Positions 47,894-58,232 are shown, numbered from the stretch's first letter. The stretch is DNA of 64,000 nucleotides from an uncultured Chloroflexia bacterium (GCA_963773695.1 CAVZCE010000007.1:71325-135324); one strand, 5' to 3'. Numbers and translations: made by a program. Notes: generated by a model not told the origin, from the sequence alone.

Positions 47894-48144
47894 CACAGCC
47901 GGGCGAAGATCCGCAGCAGGAAGCTCAGCAGGAAGAGCGCGATGAACGGCGACCAGTCGAGCCCGCCCATGGGCGGCAGGAGGCGACGGATCGGAGCCAG
48001 GACGGGCTCCGTCAGCTGGTAGACGAACGCGGTGAACGCCCCGCCACCCATCGGGTTCGTCCAGCTCAGGACCACCCGCAGCAGGATCAGGACGGAGTAC
48101 AGCGCGCCGAGCAGCGTCACGAAGGACGCCAGGACGTTGCTCAT
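47893..48144 (-). CDS. ylmG: YggT/YlmG-family integral membrane protein (cell-division cluster)
   Basis: 83 aa from ATG at 48142-48144 (MSNVLASFVTLLGALYSVLILLRVVLSW...). Confidence 0.65.
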   Translation of the reverse strand: MSNVLASFVTLLGALYSVLILLRVVLSWTNPMGGGAFTAFVYQLTEPVLAPIRRLLPPMGGLDWSPFIALFLLSFLLRIFARL

Positions 48145-48193
48145 CGGGCTCCAAGCATAGCGCGGTGCCGACGGCCGCGAACGGGCATCTCCC

Positions 48194-48928
48194 TCAGCCG
48201 GGTCGCCTGCCGAAGAGGGCGGTCCCGATCCGCACGAGCGTGGCACCCTCCGCGACGGCGGCCTCGGCATCGGCCGTCATCCCCATCGACAGCTCGGGCA
48301 GCGCCGCTCCGCTGGCCTCGCGCAGGCGATCTCGCAGGTCACGCAGCCGTCCGAAGGTCAGTCGCGCCTCCTCGGCGCTGGAACCGAAGCGGGCGATGGT
48401 CATGAGGCCCACCACGGCGACGTTGTGCAGGCGCCGCAGCGCCGTGACGATCTCGCCTCCGGGACGTGCCGCCTCGGCGAAGCGCTCGGCGTCCCAGCCG
48501 GACTTCGCCGCCTCGCCCGTGAGATTGACCTGCAGCAGGACCCGCGGTTCCCGTCCCGCATTGTGGGCGAGCGCCTCGAGCCGCTCCAGGAGAGCCCCGT
48601 CGTGGACGGAGTGGATCCACCCGAACGCCTCGACCGCCCGGCGCGCCTTGTTCGACTGGAGGTGCCCGATGAGGTGCCATTCCAGCTCGGGATGGGCCTC
48701 GACCTTCGGCAGCGCCTCCTGGACGCGGTTCTCGCCGAGGCGCGTGAGCCCGGCCCGCGCCGCGACGTCCACGACCTCGAGTCCGAAGCCCTTGGTCACC
48801 GCGACGATCCGGAAGCCGTCCGGGTCACGCCCCGCCCGCTCGGCGGCGGACCGCAGCCGGGCCCCGAGTGAGGCGAGGCGGTCGCGAACGAGGTGCTCGT
48901 CGAGCGCCGGCTCGTCGACCGGCAGCAT
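48194..48928 (-). CDS. ylmE: YggS/YlmE-family pyridoxal-phosphate homeostasis protein
   Basis: 244 aa; alanine-racemase N-terminal-domain fold with the conserved lysine in VAVTKG. Confidence 0.85.
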   Translation of the reverse strand: MLPVDEPALDEHLVRDRLASLGARLRSAAERAGRDPDGFRIVAVTKGFGLEVVDVAARAGLTRLGENRVQEALPKVEAHPELEWHLIGHLQSNKARRAVEAFGWIHSVHDGALLERLEALAHNAGREPRVLLQVNLTGEAAKSGWDAERFAEAARPGGEIVTALRRLHNVAVVGLMTIARFGSSAEEARLTFGRLRDLRDRLREASGAALPELSMGMTADAEAAVAEGATLVRIGTALFGRRPG

Positions 48929-48939
48929 CTGCCTGCCGG

Positions 48940-50190
48940 CTAGTCGGCCTTGCGGCGGAGGAAGCTGGGGATGTCGAGGTCGGTCTCGCCGTACGACGGG
49001 CGCTCGAGGCTGGGACGCACCGGGAGCGGCTGCCGCTCGCTGACGCGCGACTCCCGCGGCTCCGCCTGGGACGGCCGCGCAAACGGCGACTCCGTCCCCA
49101 TCTGCTCCTCGAGTGCCGCTCGCTCGGAGCGCTCGCGCTCGATCTCGGCGAGGATCTCTCGGCTCCGCTCGTCGAGGGACGTCTCCATCCCCCTCGAGGC
49201 CTCGGCCGCCGCCTGGCGCCCGGCCTGCTTGACGGGCTTCGCGGCGTCGAAGCCGGTTGCGATGACGGTCACCTTGACCTCGTCCCGCATCCGGTCGTCG
49301 ATCACGGTGCCGAAGATGATGTTTGCCTCCGGATCGGCCGCCTCCTTGATCACCTCGGCCGCCTCGTTCACCTCGAAGAGGCCGAGGTCGCTGCCGCCGG
49401 TGACGTTGAAGAGGATGCCGCGGGCACCCTGGATGTTCACCTCGAGGAGCGGGCTCATGACGGCCGCGCGGGCGGCCTCGACGGCCCGGTTCTCGCCGGT
49501 TGCGGTGCCGATGCCCATCATCGAGCTGCCGGCGTCGCGCATGATCGTCTTGACGTCGGCGAAGTCGAGGTTGATGAGGCCCGGAACGGTGATCAGGTCG
49601 CTGATCCCCTGCACGCCCTGGCGCAGGACGTCGTCCACCACCCGGAACGCGTCGAGGATGGAGGTCTTCTTGTCGACCACCTCGCGCAGCCGGTCATTCG
49701 GGATGGTGATCAGGGTGTCGACCTTCTCCTTGAGCTGCTCGCTGTACTGCTCGGCCACGAGCTTGCGGCGGACACCCTCGAAGCTGAACGGCTTGGTGAT
49801 GACGCCAACGGTGAGGGCGCCGAGGTCCTTGGCGATCTCGGCGATGACCGGAGCTGCGCCCGACCCGGTGCCACCGCCCATGCCGGCGGTGATGAAGATC
49901 ATGTCCGCGTCCTTGAGCGCTTCGTAGATCTTCTCCGAGTCCTCCTCCGCCGCGCGCTGCCCGATGATCGGGTCCGCGCCCGCGCCGAGGCCGCGGGTGA
50001 GCTTGTCTCCCACGCGGATCTTATGGGGCGCATCGCTCTGGAGGAGGGCCTGCGCGTCGGTGTTCACCGCGATGAACTCGACGCCCATCATCTCGGCGCG
50101 GATCATCCGGTTCACGGCGTTCGAGCCGCCGCCGCCGACGCCGATGACCTTGATCAATGCGAAGTGTTCTGCGTCCGAACGGAGCGGCAT
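48940..50190 (-). CDS. ftsZ: cell-division GTPase FtsZ
   Basis: 416 aa; tubulin signature GGGTGSG; C-terminal conserved peptide DIPSFLRRK. Confidence 0.95.
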
Positions 50191-50387
50191 CTTCCGGGTT
50201 CTCCTGCGCGGTATGGTGGCATGAACCCGTCTCGCGCGGGTTTGACCGATTCTACCGGCCCGCCGACGCTGCCGCTGGCGATTTTTCCACAGGTCCTCCC
50301 GAAGTTATCCACACCCGCGCCGGTCGGCGGTGGACGAGCGCAGCGCCTCTCCACAGGCTGTCGAGGCGACAGGCGAAGGGCGGCTGC

Positions 50388-53300
50388 TCAGGGTGTCGTG
50401 TCGGACGCTGCACCATCCCCGCCCGCCGAGCGGATCGGGAGCCGAACCGTGAAGGTGGTGCCCTCGCCGGGCTGCGAGTCGACCGAGATCGTTCCCTCGT
50501 GCGCCTCCGCGATGGATCGCGCAATGAAGAGGCCGAGCCCCAACCCTTCGGTTGGGCCCGTCGCGTCGCCCGTGGCGCCGGGTGCCCAGAGGGCCTCCGC
50601 GAGGCCCGGCGGAAGCCCGGGTCCGTGGTCGCTGACGCTGATCTCCGCCGTCCCGCGGCGACGGGCGACCCGCACGTCAATCGTCGGCGAGCTCGACGCG
50701 TGGCGAATGGCGTTCGAGATCAGGTTGAGCACGACCTGCTGGAGACGGTCCGAATCGGCGGCGAGGCGAATGGGACGTGACGGCCGATGCAGGACGATCT
50801 CCTGCCTGCCGGCGAGCGGCCGTGACATGACGACCGCCTCCTCCACGACGTCCACCAGGTCGACCTCCCGGAAGCTGAAGCGCAGCCGTCCGCTCCGCAG
50901 CCGGTTCGCATCGAACAGGTCCGACACGAGCGAGGAGAAGCGCTGGACCTGCGAGAGCGCACGCTCCGCATAGCGGTGCGACTTGCCGCGCCGGCTGCCG
51001 CGAAGCTCGCGCTCGAGGAGCTCCAGGTAGGCGGTCACCCCGGTGAGCGGGCGTGCGCAGCTCGTGGCTGAGCATGGCCACGAACTCGTCCTGCAGATGC
51101 TGCAGGCTGGTTGCGGTGACGTCGCGGATGACCGTCACCGCCCCGCCGGCGGGATCGTCGTCGAGGGCACGCCCGCGGGCCTCGTACCAGTGGCGCTCGC
51201 CCGAGGCCTCGGTGCCGGTGAAGCGCACGAGGAAGGTTCCCTCGCGCACCGGCAGCCGCCATGGCGCCCGATCCGGCGGGATCTCCTCCCCCGCCTCGTC
51301 CTCCAGCCGCACCTCGACGGCGGAGCCGAAGGTTCTGTCGAAGACACCGTTCGACAGGACCGGCGCTCCGGTCGGGTCGGTGACGACCACCGCATCGGCC
51401 ATGGACAGGAGGACGCCTTCGAGGCGCGCCCGCTCCGATTCGCTCAGCTCCCGCTGGTGCTCCACCGAGATGGCCAGGTCCTGCAGCTCGGTGCTGCGAG
51501 CCTCCAGGTCGTCGTTCGTGGTGTTGAGCTCCTCCACCGTGGCCTGCAGCTCCTCGTTGAGGGTCTCCAGCTCCTCGTTCGTCGCCTGCAGCTCCTCGTT
51601 GAGGGTCTCGACCTCCTCGGTTGCCGACTGGACCTCCTCGTTGGAGACGACGAGGTCGTCGTTCTGGCTCCTGAGGTCGGCGTTCACCATCGTCAGCTCG
51701 GCATTCGCCTCGCGCAGCCGGCGCGCGGCCTCGGTCATGCGCCTGATCTGCACCGCGAGCCGCTCGGCACGATCCGTCTGGGAGGATGACGCCTGCCGCA
51801 GCCCGCTAAGGTCGGCGTGCTCTCGGGTCACGTCGCGCACGAGGATGGCGACCGTCTCGGCGGTGCTCGTCCCGTCTCCCTGGCGGTAGCAGGTCACCTC
51901 GAGGGACATCAGCTCGCCGCTCGTGCTGTCGGCGACGGGGATGTCCCACATGCGACGCGCGGGCTCACCGCGAAACGCGTCGTCGATCTCGCGTCGCAGC
52001 TCGTTGTTCGGCACGCCCTCCACGAGGTGGACGAGGTCCTGCCCGATGGCCGCGCCGTGGACCCCCAGCAGGTTGCGGGCGGCGGTGTTGATGAGGGCGA
52101 TGTCGTACTTGCGGTCCACCACCACGATGCCCACCGGCAGCTGCATCACGATGCGATCCGCTCGCGCCGCGTGCGTCCGCGCCCGGTCGAGCTCGGCCGC
52201 CCCCCGGCTGGGGGCGATCCCGCGCGCCAGGGAGGCACGTGGCGTGGTGGGCGGCGGCAGGACCGTCATTGGTCGGAGCGGCTCACTGCCCATCCGGCCG
52301 GACGGTCGGCCCACGCGCGTCCCCCGCCGGCGGTAGATCTTCAGGCGGGGGTCCGCCAGGACGAAGGCATCGGCGAGCGGAGTGGTCGTCTCCGACTTGC
52401 CCAGGACGAGGTAGCCGCCATCCCGGAGGGCGAAGGCGAAGAGCTGCAGGGCCCGTCGCTGCAGCTCCGCGGTGAAGTAGATCAGGACGTTCCGGCAGAC
52501 CGTGAGGTCGATGCGCGGGAACGGCGCGCGCTGCGCCAGATCGTGCTGGCCGAAGGCGATGAGCGTCCGGAGTGCGGGGGCTACCTCGTACTGGCCGTCG
52601 CGCTCGAGGAAGTGGCGCTGGCGCAGCGCCTCGGGCAGCCGCGCGAGGGCCGCGGCGGGATAGATGCCGCGCCGGGCAAACGCGATCGCCTCCCCGTCGA
52701 CGTCGGTGGCGAAGATCCGCACGCGCAGATCTCCGCCGCCGGCCTCGCGTGCCTCCGTGGCCACGATCGCCAGCGAGTACGCCTCCTCGCCCGTCGCACA
52801 GCCGGCCGACCAGATGCGGACCTCGCCGCTGTGCTCGCCGGCGTGCGCGAAGAGCTGGGGAAGGAGCTGGGCGCGGAGGTGCTCGTAGAGGTCGGGGTCC
52901 CGGAAGAACTCCGTGACGTTGATGAGGAAGCTGTTCGCCAGCCGCTGCAGCTCCTCCGGGTGGCCGTGCGCGTAGCGGACGTACTCCCGTAATCCATCCT
53001 GGCCGGTCGCGACGATGCGGCGCTGGAGGCGTCGCAGCACCGTTGGCCGCTTGTACTGTGCGAAGTCGATTCCGGTGCTCTCGCGAACCGCCTCCAGGAA
53101 CGTGGTGAGGACTCCCTCCTCGTCGGAGCGCCGCGGCACGAACGTCCCGGCGAGGAGATCCTGCAGGAGGGGGCCGATCGCCTTAAGGTCGGCCACGATG
53201 TCAACGGTTGTCGGCGAGAGCGAGAGCGGCATGGCGGGGTAGCTCGCCGTCTCGGGATTCTGGATCACCACCGTTCCGCCGACCGCCTTGACGTGGCGGG

Positions 53301-53751
53301 CTCCCGCGGCGCCATCGGATCCTGCGCCGGTGAGGATGACGGCGATCAGCCCCTCGCCGTAGGCTTCGGCGGCGGAGTCCAGGGCTCCGTCGACCGACGG
53401 CCGCGGACTCGTCCTCGGCGCATCGCCGGGGCCCTGACGCACCCTCCGGGCACGAATCTCGTGGTCGCCGATGACGACCTCGCGGTCGGCGGGGATGACG
53501 AAGATGACCCCCGGATCGAGCCGCTCGCGGGCGGCGACGATCCTGATCGGAAGCCGGGTGCGACGCTGGAGGATCTGCGCAAGGTGGCTCTCGCGCCGCG
53601 GATCGAGGTGCTGGACGACGACGATCGGCGCCCGAAAGTCGAGGGGCAGCGTCGATACGAGCTCGCCGAGTGCATCGATTCCACCCGCCGAGGAACCGAT
53701 GACGACGAGGTGCTCGACGTCGTCCTGATCAGTCGATGAGGAAAGATTCAT
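50388..53751 (-). CDS. CheB methylesterase / CheR methyltransferase / PAS / coiled-coil / histidine kinase hybrid; reading frame broken by an apparent 1-nt insertion near 51048
   Basis: Frame A (53751 down to about 51040): CheB catalytic domain without REC (VVIGSSAGGIDAL...), CheR (FFRDP...SAGCATGEEAYSLA), PAS, NEEL heptad repeats, then H-box SHELRTP; frame B (51038..50388): the rest of HisKA plus HATPase_c (MTAYLELLE...GLGLGLFIARSIAEAHEGTISVDSQPGEGTTFTV). Deleting the base at 51048 restores SHELRTPLTGVTAYLELLE. Confidence 0.7.
51519..51654 (-). repeat. tandem roughly 42-nt coding repeats giving NEEL(Q/E)xxNEEL heptads in the CheBR-HK hybrid
   Basis: Direct repeats of ctcctcgttgagggtctc(c/g)a(g/c)ctcctcg...gcctgcag encode ...ETLNEELQATNEELETLNEELQATVEELNTTNDDLE... 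Confidence 0.5.
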
Positions 53752-53823
53752 GCCACCCGCCTCCGCCCGTGTTCCCCGTCCGCGCGGCATGGTCGCATTC
53801 TTGCACACGCCCGCACGGCTGCA

Positions 53824-54816
53824 ATGGAACAGCCATCCGCCGCGGGGCGGGTCGTCGTCGTGGGGGGATCTGCCGGCTCGATCGAGCCGCTCAGGACGAT
53901 CCTCGGCGGACTCCCGCCGGACTTCCCGGCAGCGCTCCTCGTCGTCGTCCACGGCTCGTCGGGGACCGGCTCGCTGCCGCGCGTCCTGGCGACCGCCGGG
54001 TCCCTCCCGGCCGAGTTCGCCGCCGACGGTACGGCCATCCGTCCGGGTCGCGTCTTCGTGGGAGTCCCGGACCGACACCTGATCCTCCAGGACGGCGTCA
54101 TGCGTCTCAGTCCCGGGGCGCGCGTGAACCACGCCCGGCCGGCGGTTGACCCGCTCTTCCAGAGCGCCGCCCTGGCGCACGGTCCGGGGGTCATCGGCGT
54201 CGTGCTCTCCGGGAGCCTCGACGACGGGAGCGCGGGGCTTGCGGCGATCAGGCGACACGGGGGCATCGCGATCGTCCAGGACCCCGACGAAGCGACCTTC
54301 TCGGGAATGCCGCGCTCCGCCGCGGTCCACGCGGACCCCGCCCACGTCCTGCCGGCCGGCGAGATCCCCGACCTCCTCGTGCGGATCGTCTCGGCGGCCC
54401 CGACCGACCGCGACGGGGCCCTCGCCTTCCGTTGCCGGATCGGGCACAGCTACACGGCACGCCATTTGCTGGACGCACAGGGCGACGAGGTGGAGAATGG
54501 TCTCTGGCAGGCGTTTCGGGCGCTCGAGGAGCAGGCCGAATTGGCACGCACCTTGGGGAACACCGCCAGGATCGAGGGCCGTACGAGCGCGGCGAATCGG
54601 TTCGACGAGCAGGAACGCGTTGCACGGAAACGGGCCGAGATGATCCGAGCGATCCTTGAACAGGCCGCGTGCGTTGCCGCCGCGGCATCCCGCGACCTCC
54701 GGCAGGGAGGGAATGGCGAATGGCACCTGACGATCGCGAGGGCGCAGTGCCGGCCGCGCGGCTCGTCGTCGTGGACGACGACCAGGCGACCCTCGACCTC
54801 ATGCACGAGATCCTGA
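53824..54816 (+). CDS. CheB-type protein-glutamate methylesterase catalytic domain, stand-alone (no receiver domain), with a C-terminal helical extension
   Basis: 330-aa ORF; GGSAGS...VVVHGS...RPAVDPLFQSAA...VLSGSLDDGSAG...GGIAIVQDP matches the CheB_methylest fold; 3' end uncertain because it overlaps the next gene by about 97 nt. Confidence 0.7.
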   Translation: MEQPSAAGRVVVVGGSAGSIEPLRTILGGLPPDFPAALLVVVHGSSGTGSLPRVLATAGSLPAEFAADGTAIRPGRVFVGVPDRHLILQDGVMRLSPGARVNHARPAVDPLFQSAALAHGPGVIGVVLSGSLDDGSAGLAAIRRHGGIAIVQDPDEATFSGMPRSAAVHADPAHVLPAGEIPDLLVRIVSAAPTDRDGALAFRCRIGHSYTARHLLDAQGDEVENGLWQAFRALEEQAELARTLGNTARIEGRTSAANRFDEQERVARKRAEMIRAILEQAACVAAAASRDLRQGGNGEWHLTIARAQCRPRGSSSWTTTRRPSTSCTRS

Positions 54817-55217
54817 GCGGGGATGGCTACGACGTCCGCTGCTTGCCGTCGGTGTCGGCGGACCTCCGCGAGATCGTCGCCGCCGCGCCCCATCTGCTGA
54901 TCGTGGACCTGCTGCTGAGCGACGAGGGCCGGGACCTGTCGGGATGGGACCTGGTACGCCTCGTCAAGTCGCATCGCGCGCTCACCCGTGTCCAGATCCT
55001 GGTCGTCTCCGCGGACTACCCGACCCTGCGCAGCCACATCGCGGAGGCGGCGGAGATGGACGGCGTGCGGCTCCTGACCAAGCCGTTCTCTCTCGACAGC
55101 CTCTCGGTGCTCGTCCGCGATGCACTGCGCGAGGGAGGGTGGCTCGAGCCCGAGCCGGCGCCGCTGGTCGCGCGGATCCCGCCCCCGCCGCCTCCGCGCT
55201 CCAGGCGGGCATCGTGA
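54720..55217 (+). CDS. single-domain response regulator (CheY-like receiver only)
   Basis: 165 aa; LVVVDDDQATLDLMHEILSGDGYDV...LLIVDLLL(S/D)...KP, a receiver-domain pattern with the phospho-acceptor Asp in LIVDLLL. Confidence 0.75.
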   Translation: MAPDDREGAVPAARLVVVDDDQATLDLMHEILSGDGYDVRCLPSVSADLREIVAAAPHLLIVDLLLSDEGRDLSGWDLVRLVKSHRALTRVQILVVSADYPTLRSHIAEAAEMDGVRLLTKPFSLDSLSVLVRDALREGGWLEPEPAPLVARIPPPPPPRSRRAS

Positions 55218-55594
55218 ACCGGCGGTCGCAGGCCAGGGCTGTCCGGGCGCTCATCGTGGAGCAGCGCCGGGTGACCCTCCGAACCCGGACGATCAGCGTC
55301 ACCCTGGTCTCCGCGCTCGACGACTATGCCAGGCAGACCGCCGCGGCGCAGCCGGACGACGAGGCGCAGCTCCACCTGCGGCGCCTGTGGTGCGAACGCG
55401 CCCTGCAGATGCTGCAGGACGTGCGCGCCAGCAGCATGCGTGCCCGAGAGGTGGCGCGGACCGTCGCGGCGGCGATCGACGCGCGGGGCGATGTCGTCGA
55501 CCTGAGCGAGCTGGAGGACGCGAGCCGCGAGGCGGACGTCTCGGTCGAGCGCGCGGAGAAGACCGCGCAGGAGTGGCTCCGGCTGGTCAGCTGA
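55214..55594 (+). CDS. hypothetical alpha-helical protein, translationally coupled to the response regulator (GTGA overlap)
   Basis: 126 aa from GTG at 55214; no recognisable domain; ends 26 nt before the convergent ftsA stop. Confidence 0.4.
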   Translation: MNRRSQARAVRALIVEQRRVTLRTRTISVTLVSALDDYARQTAAAQPDDEAQLHLRRLWCERALQMLQDVRASSMRAREVARTVAAAIDARGDVVDLSELEDASREADVSVERAEKTAQEWLRLVS

Positions 55595-55620
55595 CCGAGC
55601 CGGGACGGGTCGGCGAGGGG

Positions 55621-56859
55621 TCAGCCGGGGAAGAGACCCCGGAACCAGTCCACGACGCGGCCGACCCCCGAACCCAGCGACGGTCCCGGGGTGTAGCCGA
55701 TCGGCTCGTCGCCGAGGTGCTCGGCGCCCCAGAGCAGCAGACCGATGGGGGTCGAGAAGGCGGGATTCGAGAGCTGGTCCATCAGCCCTCCCACGCCCTG
55801 GGGCGACCCGATGCGCACCGGCATGTTCAGGACCTCCCGAGCGAGCTCGGCGGCTCCGGCAAGGCGCGCGCCACCGCCGGTGAGCACCGCGCCGGCGGGG
55901 AGCATACCCGCGTGGCCGGAGCGCTTCACCTCCTCCGCGATGAGCGAGTAGATCTCCCCCATGCGCGCCTCGATCACCTCCGACAGGCGCCGGCGCTGGA
56001 TCGTCTGCCCGGCCTCTTCGCCCAGGACCGCCACGCTGAGCAGCTCCTCCGGCTGGACGTCCGCGAGGTTGGCGGTCCCGTGCTTGATCTTGATCTCCTC
56101 GGCGAGGTTCAGGCTCGTGCGCAGGCCGATCGCCACGTCATTCGTGACGTTGATCCCGCCGACCGGCAGGACCGCGGAATGGTAGATGGCGCCATCGACG
56201 AAGATCGCGATGTCCGTGGTCCCGCCGCCGATATCGGCCACGAGGACCCCCAGGTCCTTCTCCGTGTCGGTGAGGACCGCCTCGGCCGCGGCCAGCGAGC
56301 CGATCACCAGCTCGTCGATCTGGACGCTCGCGCTGGTGATGCACTTCGTCAGGTTCTGCACCGACGTCGCGGCGCCGGCGACGATGTGGGTCTCCACCTC
56401 GAGGCGCACGGCGCTCATCCCCAGCGGATCCTTGATCCCGTCCTGCCCGTCGACGATGAAGCCGCGCGGGATGACGTGGAGCAGCTCCCGGTTCGAGGGG
56501 ACCTGGATGGCCTTGGCGGCATCGGTCGCGCGCGCGACATCCTCGCGGCTCACCTCGCGCTTGTGCCCGGAGACCGCGACCACGCCCCGGCTGTTCTGGC
56601 TCGTGATGTGGCTCCCGCCCACGCTGACGAAGGCGGAGCTGATCTTGTAGCCGGAGAGGCGCTCGGCCTTCTCGATGCTCTGGGCGACCGAGTTCACGGT
56701 CTGGTCGATGTTGGCGACCATGCCCTTCTTCATCCCGACCGACGGACCGATGCCGTAGCCGATGATGTTGATGTCGCCGGTGCGGCCGACCTCGCCGATG
56801 AGCGTCGTCACCTTGGTCGTGCCGGCGTCGATGCCGACGAGGACCGTTTCCCTGTCCAA
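55621..56859 (-). CDS. ftsA: cell-division protein FtsA (actin-like ATPase)
   Basis: 412 aa; MDRETVLVGIDAGTTKV..., DIGGGTTDIAIF, GGGARL motifs. Confidence 0.9.
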   Translation of the reverse strand: MDRETVLVGIDAGTTKVTTLIGEVGRTGDINIIGYGIGPSVGMKKGMVANIDQTVNSVAQSIEKAERLSGYKISSAFVSVGGSHITSQNSRGVVAVSGHKREVSREDVARATDAAKAIQVPSNRELLHVIPRGFIVDGQDGIKDPLGMSAVRLEVETHIVAGAATSVQNLTKCITSASVQIDELVIGSLAAAEAVLTDTEKDLGVLVADIGGGTTDIAIFVDGAIYHSAVLPVGGINVTNDVAIGLRTSLNLAEEIKIKHGTANLADVQPEELLSVAVLGEEAGQTIQRRRLSEVIEARMGEIYSLIAEEVKRSGHAGMLPAGAVLTGGGARLAGAAELAREVLNMPVRIGSPQGVGGLMDQLSNPAFSTPIGLLLWGAEHLGDEPIGYTPGPSLGSGVGRVVDWFRGLFPG

Positions 56860-56906
56860 GCTGCCTCCTGATCGCGCGTCCCGAGGGCGCTAGAGATGAT
56901 TCGACC

Positions 56907-57230
56907 TTACAGGAAGTGGCGCCGGATCAGCGCCACGTTTTGGAAGATGCGCAGCCCGAAGGCGAAGAGGGCGACCAGGTACAGGTCGATCCCCAGACGA
57001 TCCCCCACGAACGTCAGCAGGACCGCGACAAACGCATTCGTCACGAAGCCGGAGAGGAAGACCCGGTTGTCGTAGTGGGCATCGAGCTCGGCCCGCACCG
57101 CCCCCAGCACGGAGTCGAGCCCGGCCAGGATCCCGACAGCGCTGTAGCGCGCCAGGTCGGGACTGACGTTGACGCCAAAGATGAGCCCGAGTGCGACGCC
57201 GACCGCAAGGCCGACCAAAGGAAGCCACAT
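56907..57230 (-). CDS. sbp: small basic membrane protein (DUF1290, Sbp/YlxX-like) between ftsQ and ftsA
   Basis: 107 aa, two TM helices; position and size match the Firmicute sbp gene. Confidence 0.5.
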   Translation of the reverse strand: MWLPLVGLAVGVALGLIFGVNVSPDLARYSAVGILAGLDSVLGAVRAELDAHYDNRVFLSGFVTNAFVAVLLTFVGDRLGIDLYLVALFAFGLRIFQNVALIRRHFL

Positions 57231-57275
57231 CAGGGACGGTACCGATAACCGCAGGATGGGGACCGCGGGCCGACC

Positions 57276-58232
57276 TCAGCATGTGCCCTCGCCGCCCCGG
57301 CCGTTCGGCCGCCAATATACCTTCCCCGGGTTGCGGGCATCCAGCCAGCCGACCGAGCTCTCGCGCTCGTTCGCGAAGAGCGTCCGCACCGCCGCGACCT
57401 GGTCCGCGATCCGGGCGGCGCGCGCCTGCGCGTCGCCGGCCTCGAGCTCGTAGGAACCGAAGACCGCGGTCCAGGTGCCCGACGGCCGCGGCCGCAGGAG
57501 GTACCCGCAGACGTCGTCGATGCTCACGCCCACCGAGCGTGCGCTCGAGCCCAGCGCGGCCGGCACGATGGCCCGCAGCTCCAGCGCGGTCGCCAGGGCG
57601 TCGGCGGGGATGCGGTCGCCCGCCGCGATCGCCAGCGACGCGCCCCGCTCGTCCACGATGCCGGGCAGGCTCGCCAGCGACTTCGGGAGCGGGCCCGACA
57701 GCGGCTCGACGCCGATGACGGTCCCGTCCGCGGCGACGACGAGGTGCGCCGCGCGGGTGGTCCACACGAACGCCGGGGCCTTCTCCGCGAGCTGGACGGA
57801 CAGGCCGCTCGGGAAGCGCGTCTCGACCCGGGCCGAGGCGACCGCGGGGAGCGCGCTCAGCCGCTCGGCGACCGCCCCGGCGTCGACGGCCAGCAGGCTC
57901 GTGCCGCGCAGCGGATCGAGGAGCGCCCCGATGCGCTGGTCGGACGTGTAGTGCGCGCCGGTCCAGGCGACGGTGGAGACACGCAGCCACGGGCCGTCGA
58001 CGAGCATCAGGAGCGCGGCCGCCAGGCCCACGGCGAGGAGGGACGCGAGGATTCGACCGCCGGTCGTTCCGCCCCGCAGGCGGGGGACGCGCAGGTGTGG
58101 TCCGCGCCGGCGGGCATGGGGGCCGCTCCCCCGCCGGGGGCGCGCGGCCGGCGGGCGGCTCCTCGGGGGACGTGCCCGGTCGGGAACGGCCGGGGCTGCT
58201 CCTCGCGCAGTCGGGGCGCGCTTCACCTTCAC
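57276..58232 (-). CDS. ftsQ: cell-division protein FtsQ/DivIB (POTRA domain)
   Basis: About 318 aa from GTG at 58230-58232 (overlaps the ddl stop); basic N-terminus, one TM helix, POTRA and FtsQ-type domain; the longer track ORF is antisense/overlap artefact. Confidence 0.75.
   Translation of the reverse strand: MKVKRAPTARGAAPAVPDRARPPRSRPPAARPRRGSGPHARRRGPHLRVPRLRGGTTGGRILASLLAVGLAAALLMLVDGPWLRVSTVAWTGAHYTSDQRIGALLDPLRGTSLLAVDAGAVAERLSALPAVASARVETRFPSGLSVQLAEKAPAFVWTTRAAHLVVAADGTVIGVEPLSGPLPKSLASLPGIVDERGASLAIAAGDRIPADALATALELRAIVPAALGSSARSVGVSIDDVCGYLLRPRPSGTWTAVFGSYELEAGDAQARAARIADQVAAVRTLFANERESSVGWLDARNPGKVYWRPNGRGGEGTC

Follow-up and report, generated by a model that had tools for sequence, protein, structure and literature searches.

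CheB/CheR fusion kinases, which JGI annotation names 'two-component system, chemotaxis family, CheB/CheR fusion protein' and which we take to be KEGG orthology K13924 'cheBR', share the domain order CheB_methylest, CheR_N, CheR, PAS, coiled coil, PAS, HisKA, HATPase_c. The CheR and CheB catalytic domains are those of the canonical chemosensory pathway, in which methyl-accepting chemotaxis proteins (MCPs) act through CheW, CheA and CheY; in the E. coli receptor Tar, the methylated Glu/Gln residues lie seven apart on one helix face. Integration hot spots flanked by core genes are a general concept for the accessory genes of bacterial chromosomes, and DnaA-dependent transcription of ftsZ has been reported in Caulobacter crescentus, with DnaA boxes also found near the E. 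coli ftsQAZ promoters. Here we describe a locus that touches on all of these systems. It lies in a stretch of 64,000 nucleotides (the window) from an uncultured Chloroflexia bacterium (GCA_963773695.1 CAVZCE010000007.1:71325-135324), in which a fusion-kinase gene and three companion genes separate ftsA from ftsZ in the division and cell wall (dcw) cluster.

We conclude that this four-gene block is probably a genuine, vertically inherited and dispensable accessory cassette, lodged long ago in a permissive ftsA-ftsZ spacer and partly decayed in the window genome. The cassette fills the whole of the ftsA-ftsZ interval (50191-55620; 5,430 nt) and is made up of a minus-strand kinase gene and a divergent plus-strand operon encoding a CheB-like methylesterase, a receiver-only response regulator and a small helical protein. 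An initial interpretation made from the sequence alone (the sequence-only reading) had placed a four-gene block of these contents and strands between ftsA and ftsZ, and the Pfam and open reading frame (ORF) calls agree; the distances it gave, 26 nt from the ftsA stop to the small-gene stop and 197 nt from the kinase stop at 50388 to the ftsZ start, are exact. Its premise that ftsA and ftsZ are tightly adjacent as a rule fails in Limnocylindria, in which even the empty spacer measures at least 165 nt.

The spacer was compared across relatives by an FtsA scan of species-representative genomes, which returned 80 loci with FtsA 80-95% identical, nearly all labelled Candidatus Limnocylindria or Chloroflexota (L001-L087 denote the related loci compared, and P0002 and P0123 homologous proteins from database searches). 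The source of the window is itself a soil member of Ca. Limnocylindria. Among the 74 loci with both ftsA and ftsZ, in which spacer length was measured, 50 have a spacer of 165-355 nt and 24, found among L006-L078, one of 446-5,820 nt. The three nearest relatives, L001-L003, whose FtsA and FtsZ are 94-95% identical to those of the window, belong to the short class (175-176 nt), and this synteny comparison bears out the lineage-specific insertion that the sequence-only reading had offered as one explanation of the block. The cargo differs from species to species: a receiver gene alone (L031, L033, L056, L077) or with the small-protein gene (L020), which we treat as remnants of the cassette; an SBP_bac_5 protein together with a class III cyclase bearing a beta-propeller (L052, L067 and L070, the last at L070:5306-8861); an amine oxidase (L032:11234-13133); an ectoine-synthase-like cupin (L009:3462-4090); SnoaL-like proteins (L031, L061); and elsewhere membrane or lipoproteins of no known kind. 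Because 24 of the 74 loci hold inserts of such unrelated content, the ftsA-ftsZ spacer is a hot spot for accessory-gene insertion in Limnocylindria. It resembles core-gene-flanked integration hot spots in being one site between core genes that is mostly empty and otherwise holds unrelated cargo according to species. It differs from them in having no integrase, transposase, tRNA or flanking repeats, and in lying inside the dcw cluster, between two genes that are usually adjacent. No mobility genes were seen in the spacers carrying cargo, and literature searches found no published comparative study of ftsA-ftsZ insertions. L026:16354-16872, L066:11245-11808 and L061:5474-6031 encode related membrane proteins of ~170-190 aa that match no Pfam family, on the opposite strand directly upstream of the ftsZ leader; L026 holds its copy besides the full cassette.

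The cassette itself recurs, in the same order and orientation, between ftsA and ftsZ in L026, L081 (the JGI contig carrying P0002), L087 and L085, with the small-protein, receiver and CheB-like genes on the strand opposite to ftsA and the kinase and ftsZ on the ftsA strand. L087, a Logan contig, encodes the C-terminus of FtsA at one end and the N-terminus of FtsZ at the other, and L085 is partial, comprising CheB-like, kinase, ftsZ and ylmE. The five carrier assemblies come from separate projects, namely a metagenome-assembled genome of the Genome Taxonomy Database (GTDB), two JGI metagenomes, a Logan assembly and the window. The cassette genes are also found outside the dcw cluster: L082 and L086 hold the kinase, a divergent CheB-like gene and the small helical gene together, with a receiver gene nearby in a different arrangement, and a kinase plus CheB-like pair lies beside purine genes in L084 and beside genes for a MacB/FtsX-type transporter and a Crp-family regulator in L083. 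A glycosyltransferase gene downstream in L082 was considered as a sign of a rearranged dcw neighbourhood and rejected at 29% identity.

Several lines of evidence bear on how the cassette came to its present distribution. On a host tree built from FtsA and FtsZ, two clades contain carriers and receiver-only loci, interspersed with empty loci, and in the kinase tree the dcw-located copies fall in one clade together with the non-dcw L082 and L086, L087 being basal. The identity of the cassette proteins tracks host relatedness: for the kinase it is 70% between window and L081 and 63% between window and L026, compared with 68% and 58%, respectively, for the host protein YlmE, and for the receiver it is 62% between L026 and L020 and 46% between L026 and the window. 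The composition of the block is native, with a GC of 0.70-0.73 against 0.69-0.77 in the flanks and a third-position GC (GC3) of 0.86-0.94 against 0.90-0.95 in the flanking genes; the sequence-only reading had proposed a check of GC skew and codon usage against the flanking genes, and in GC and GC3 the block matches its neighbours. Lesions are present in three of the five carriers: the window has a kinase frameshift and a CheB-like deletion, the L026 CheB-like protein is without its entire C-terminal domain, and the L081 receiver gene (L081:6193-6760) changes frame at a C run (...EDPP...) and so falls into two parts. The cassettes of L085 and L087 look intact. Taken as a whole, these patterns would be those of an old insertion followed by vertical inheritance and repeated loss.

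What may have made the spacer permissive is the region directly upstream of ftsZ. About 170 nt 5' of ftsZ are conserved in 77 loci whether an insert is present or absent; the conserved block starts ~15-20 nt past the ftsA stop in empty loci and ~35 nt past the kinase stop in the window. This putative leader includes a perfect DnaA box, TGTGGATAA (50305-50313), kept in 70 of the 77 loci and without a second exact copy in the 64 kb, where 0 are expected by chance, as well as a second DnaA-box-like element, TGTGGAAAA (50283-50291), and the hexamer TAGAAT (50249-50254), found in 73 of 77 loci. Further conserved elements are CTGTGGAC, CTGTGGAG and GTCCACC, together with an invariant hairpin (AACCCG...CGGGTT) and a GGAG ribosome-binding site. 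Folding of the leader is not significant (z=-0.75); the hairpin stems are invariant. A consensus scan of the block, including 53752-53823, found no sigma-70-type promoter and no minus-strand terminator, a result that is uninformative for a Chloroflexota genome. The claim that ftsZ must have its own promoter in 50191-50387 is thus upheld indirectly, by conservation of the leader in the 77 loci with or without an insert, with no sigma-70 consensus to mark the site. This conservation supports an independent ftsZ promoter within the leader and, because the leader would be self-sufficient, insertions would be tolerated on the ftsA-proximal side of the spacer.

The DnaA motifs suggest, in addition, a DnaA-linked control of ftsZ and a coupling of replication and division in this uncultured lineage. 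The likeness to DnaA-dependent ftsZ control in C. crescentus and at E. coli ftsQAZ lies in a perfect DnaA box and DnaA-box-like repeats upstream of ftsZ; the difference is that here such control is suggested by motifs in DNA, which could bind another factor. The boxes were also considered as part of a replication origin, an idea set aside with one perfect box only and no turn of GC skew in 40-64 kb.

The kinase of the window encodes all domains of the fusion-kinase family in order and on one strand, and differs from the family in two respects. The window copy lies inside the dcw cluster, whereas four other members examined are at unrelated loci, and in it a +1 frameshift behind the H-box parts the HisKA/HATPase region from the rest. 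The extra C directly follows the codons for SHELRTP, where the window reads ACGCCCGCTCACC and relatives read ACGCCGCTCACC; the relatives compared at this site have ACGCC(G/A)CT(C/G)ACC or a synonymous variant. Dropping one C restores ...TPLTGVTAYLELL... and fuses ORF 50677-54726 with ORF 50388-51038. The sequence-only reading had taken this gene for a minus-strand CheB-CheR-PAS-HK hybrid, correctly as to domains and strand; as read here, the gene is not one intact ORF. Over 100% of its length the repaired kinase has 66% identity to P0002, an intact protein of 1125 aa, and its identity to intact family members of ~1,100 aa is 48-66%; 7,461 proteins match at E<=1e-20. Pfam matches are strong for CheR (E=4.6e-51) and for CheB_methylest both here (E=1e-46) and in the separate CheB-like protein (7.6e-45), and none of the kinase, the two CheB-like proteins and the two receivers scanned reaches the cut-off of an NCBIfam model. 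Loss of the catalytic Asp from the kinase CheB domain (QNPE) was considered and rejected, since a GxxDG motif, which we take to hold the Asp of the CheB triad, is present. The cassette is, in sum, a new and damaged member of an annotated but unstudied kinase family, in an unusual position.

Pfam annotation of every ORF in 48900-56900 that reaches 180 aa identified no CheA, CheW or MCPsignal domain in the block. The sequence-only reading was right in this respect that the block is not a chemotaxis operon, although CheR and CheB catalytic domains are present. Its further statement that no methyl-accepting protein is present holds for domain annotation and is probably misleading, since the kinase carries five MCP-type methylation-consensus sites. 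These lie in a coiled coil between the PAS domains that follows the pattern (S/A)ATEEVETLNEELQATNEELETLNEELQATVEELNT, and the segment AATEEVETLNEELQATNEELETLNEELQATVEELNT is common to the window kinase and the fusion-kinase family. The window copy has five such sites in a row, compared with a mean of 1.4 scattered sites in a shuffled protein; all five are kept in 116 of 120 homologs, and the coiled coil is the most conserved region of the kinase (81-90% identity versus 44-71% elsewhere). At the DNA level, a 21-nt periodic repeat in six imperfect copies (51506-51699) underlies the heptad 'NEEL' coiled coil. From the five conserved MCP-type sites and their Tar-like spacing by seven, we infer that the kinase probably methylates itself, with the fused CheR and CheB modifying their own signalling helix.

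Compared with the canonical pathway, the module thus shares the catalytic domains of CheR and CheB, Glu-Glu pairs that recur every heptad and fit the receptor consensus, and a single-domain CheY-like receiver as likely phospho-acceptor. It departs from that pathway in having no MCP signalling domain, CheA or CheW, in that its kinase is of the class I HisKA type, in that its CheB modules are without the regulatory N-terminal receiver of canonical CheB, and in that the kinase would itself contain the methyl-accepting helix.

Three further proteins are encoded in the cassette. In the CheB-like protein, the Ser/His/Asp triad motifs can be read as GGSAGS, VVVHGS and SLDDG. What the sequence-only reading called a stand-alone CheB domain is indeed a plus-strand CheB_methylest gene, and it is not a bare domain, since it has a C-terminal domain, degenerate here: alignment to four full-length partners shows the window copy to be ~60 residues short, with the CPxC of the motif CPxCxG...CRVGH lost, and the size of this deletion indicates that it is real. 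Full-length partners (337-391 aa) have a linker, a zinc-ribbon-like CPxCxG...(17)...CRVGH motif and a helical LWxAxRALEEQAxLA segment. This unannotated C-terminal module, for which there is no Pfam or NCBIfam model, is present in the partners L081:6679-7755, L082:4799-5887, L083:6689-7714, L084:6611-7630, L085:88-1263 and L087:1209-2303.

The two-component residues are complete, comprising the kinase H-box and, in the receiver, the acidic pocket, phospho-Asp, Ser and Lys; D19/D20, D63, S97 and K121 (in K-P-F) are invariant in eight orthologs. Gene neighbourhood points to the receiver as the likely phosphotransfer partner of the kinase. The small ORF, described as hypothetical in the sequence-only reading, is a real conserved gene of 126 aa. 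Homologs follow CheB-like or receiver genes in L081, L026, L020, L087, L082 and L086, and only nine homologs were found among 5.8 billion proteins (P0123 is the window gene itself). The protein has no Pfam or NCBIfam match; AlphaFold2 predicts a three-helix bundle (pLDDT 79), and a fold search with this model returned generic or designed helical bundles only (best E=0.29), giving no functional lead. An Hpt domain was ruled out, there being no conserved His.

These observations can be assembled into a working model. A long spacer with a self-sufficient ftsZ promoter and leader would tolerate insertions and so have turned into a place where cargo of unrelated kinds collects. The cassette would be a self-contained two-component module in which the cytoplasmic PAS sensor kinase phosphorylates the receiver-only regulator. 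The CheR and CheB domains of the kinase, with the separate CheB-like esterase as a second route of demethylation, would methylate and demethylate the five Glu-Glu pairs on the coiled-coil linker, and methylation would reset kinase output, giving chemoreceptor-style adaptation without MCP, CheA or CheW. The small three-helix protein would be a fourth conserved partner. The module would be decaying in the window genome, and most relatives would have lost all of it or all but the receiver gene.

A number of observations weigh against parts of this account. The host tree is a neighbour-joining tree on two conserved proteins without support values, and on it a single ancient gain needs at least ten independent clean losses; no remnant of the module can be seen in the empty L001-L003 spacers. 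L082 and L086 belong to the kinase clade yet lie outside the dcw cluster, so the cassette can move. The evidence for decay is itself ambiguous in part, in that the frameshift of the window kinase and that of the L081 receiver each alter a single base in a C run, as a sequencing error could do; either both are homopolymer errors or both are decay. The DHp/ATPase part beyond the kinase frameshift is 46-55% identical to its orthologs and so no more diverged than intact pairs (44-51%), for which reason the lesion is recent or artefactual. The support for self-methylation is motif matching, and literature searches found no functional studies of CheB/CheR fusion kinases in the library searched, a paper on CheR-TPR fusions proving irrelevant, so that what is known of the family is annotation. 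Finally, receivers stay intact beside the ftsZ leader after kinase loss, which hints at a function tied to location.

The main alternative to an old insertion with loss is repeated independent acquisition into the same spacer, either of the whole cassette or of the receiver and small-protein genes followed by the kinase and CheB-like genes, through homologous recombination in the highly conserved ftsA and ftsZ flanks, as has been proposed for core-gene-flanked integration hot spots. In its favour, the cassette is patchily spread across two host clades, the spacer accepts many kinds of cargo, the kinase and CheB-like pair exists as a unit elsewhere, and relatives share 85-98% DNA identity in the flanks. 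We nevertheless consider it unlikely, given that cassette identities mirror host relatedness, that order, orientation and boundaries are alike in all five carriers, that composition is native, and that the ftsA and ftsZ DNA at the window junctions, where an import should be visible, resembles that of the carrier L081 no more than that of the empty L001-L003. An assembly or binning artefact, in which the block was wrongly joined into the dcw cluster, has almost no probability left. The source is evidently metagenome-assembled, one 208-kb contig is the sole record of the exact kinase product, and one frameshift is present; but GC and GC3 match the flanks and, the same arrangement occurring in four other independent assemblies, five in all show the same ftsA and ftsZ junctions, which disposes of the assembly error that the sequence-only reading had allowed for.

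The other explanation to be weighed is functional coupling, in which position was selected and the receiver, alone or with the kinase, feeds an environmental signal to FtsZ expression or Z-ring assembly; DivK is an example of a single-domain regulator that acts in the Caulobacter cell cycle. The cassette has been kept at this exact site while the kinase diverged to 54% identity, and five species have retained the receiver by itself, its catalytic residues all in place. In L033, L056 and L077 the receiver gene is divergent and ~230 nt from the ftsZ start, so that its promoter must overlap the conserved leader. The kinase, for its part, is co-directional with ftsZ in every carrier and lies 159-227 nt upstream in four of five; being so close and co-directional, with no terminator predicted in the window copy, it could be read through into ftsZ. 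Yet every component is missing from the site in most relatives, including the nearest three, and the kinase, CheB-like and small helical genes are found outside the dcw cluster as well. Other species have unrelated cargo in this spacer, the window kinase and CheB-like genes are damaged, and a lasting position is expected of anything lodged in a highly syntenic cluster. These same facts run counter to the methylation- and phosphorylation-based input into septation that the sequence-only reading had suggested, and we hold coupling to be improbable, as we do its more specific form, in which a receiver fed by a self-adapting, methylation-tuned kinase is a lineage-specific input to ftsZ expression or Z-ring assembly. 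Given the non-dcw copies, the hot spot, the absence from most relatives and the damage here, the position of the cassette beside ftsZ would reflect tolerance of insertion rather than a role in division.

Features of the locus, with positions counted from the first letter of the window
Feature	Position	Strand	Basis or remarks
ftsZ	48940-50190	minus	Pfam Tubulin, FtsZ_C; YggS/YlmE downstream
Conserved ftsZ upstream region (putative promoter/leader)	50191-50360	minus	alignments of 7 and 77 loci
Kinase 3' part: rest of DHp and HATPase_c	50388-51048	minus	Pfam partial HisKA and HATPase_c; out of frame with 5' part
Frameshift site	51049-51051	minus	CCC here, CC in relatives (+1 C)
Kinase 5' part: CheB, CheR_N, CheR, PAS, coiled coil, PAS, H-box SHELRTP	51049-53751	minus	Pfam
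Coiled-coil segment SATEEVETLNEELQATNEELETLNEELQATVEELNT	51520-51627	minus	five heptad-spaced matches to [ASTG]xx[EQ][EQ]xx[ASTG]
Divergent intergenic region, kinase / CheB-like operon	53752-53823	none	72 nt
CheB-like methylesterase with degenerate C-terminal domain	53824-54816	plus	Pfam CheB_methylest, aa 11-184
Receiver-only response regulator	54720-55217	plus	Pfam Response_reg; start codon uncertain; overlaps tail of CheB-like ORF
Small helical protein 'hyp', 126 aa	55214-55594	plus	GTG start overlaps receiver TGA stop (GTGA)
Convergent-stop spacer, ftsA / small helical gene	55595-55620	none	26 nt; ftsA-side edge of insert
ftsA	55621-56859	minus	Pfam FtsA, SHS2_FTSA; 80-95% identity to FtsA of 80 Limnocylindria loci

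The surroundings of the cassette are otherwise those of a dcw cluster. G+C across the window is 70-77%, and the minus-strand gene order, murD, ftsW, murG, murB, ddl, ftsQ, a 107-aa membrane protein, ftsA, ftsZ and yggS/ylmE, matches the gene calls of L081. The four genes account for all of the block, and no integrase, transposase or recombinase gene is among them; no pair of terminal direct or inverted repeats occurs at both boundaries (~50,390 and ~55,600), and the 26-nt spacer at the ftsA side has no flanking repeat and does not resemble what follows ftsA in the empty loci L001-L003. Rfam gave no match in 48000-57500. The gene for the 107-aa membrane protein (56907-57230, minus) lies between ftsQ and ftsA, and its L081 counterpart, equal in position and length, is called Pfam DUF1290; we take DUF1290 to be the Sbp-like small basic protein of Firmicutes dcw clusters, the link to the window gene being by position and length only.

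The findings bear first on the division cluster itself. Across a class of abundant soil and freshwater Chloroflexota, ftsA and ftsZ, usually seen as a fixed co-transcribed pair, are separated by a long spacer with its own ftsZ leader, and this spacer repeatedly gains and sheds accessory genes, which is relevant to the use of dcw synteny markers and to ftsZ regulation as deduced from operon structure. They bear also on a very large, uncharacterised family of CheB/CheR fusions, whose best-conserved segment resembles a built-in methyl-accepting helix; if it is one, ordinary two-component kinases would have receptor-style adaptation of their own. Should the cassette be coupled to division after all, some Limnocylindria would tie an environmental or redox signal, with chemotaxis-style adaptation, to cell division, and the persistence of the receiver after kinase loss would reflect that role. 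The hot spot, the DnaA-box leader and the putative methylation helix, none of which requires the cassette to regulate division, may outlast its placement in interest.

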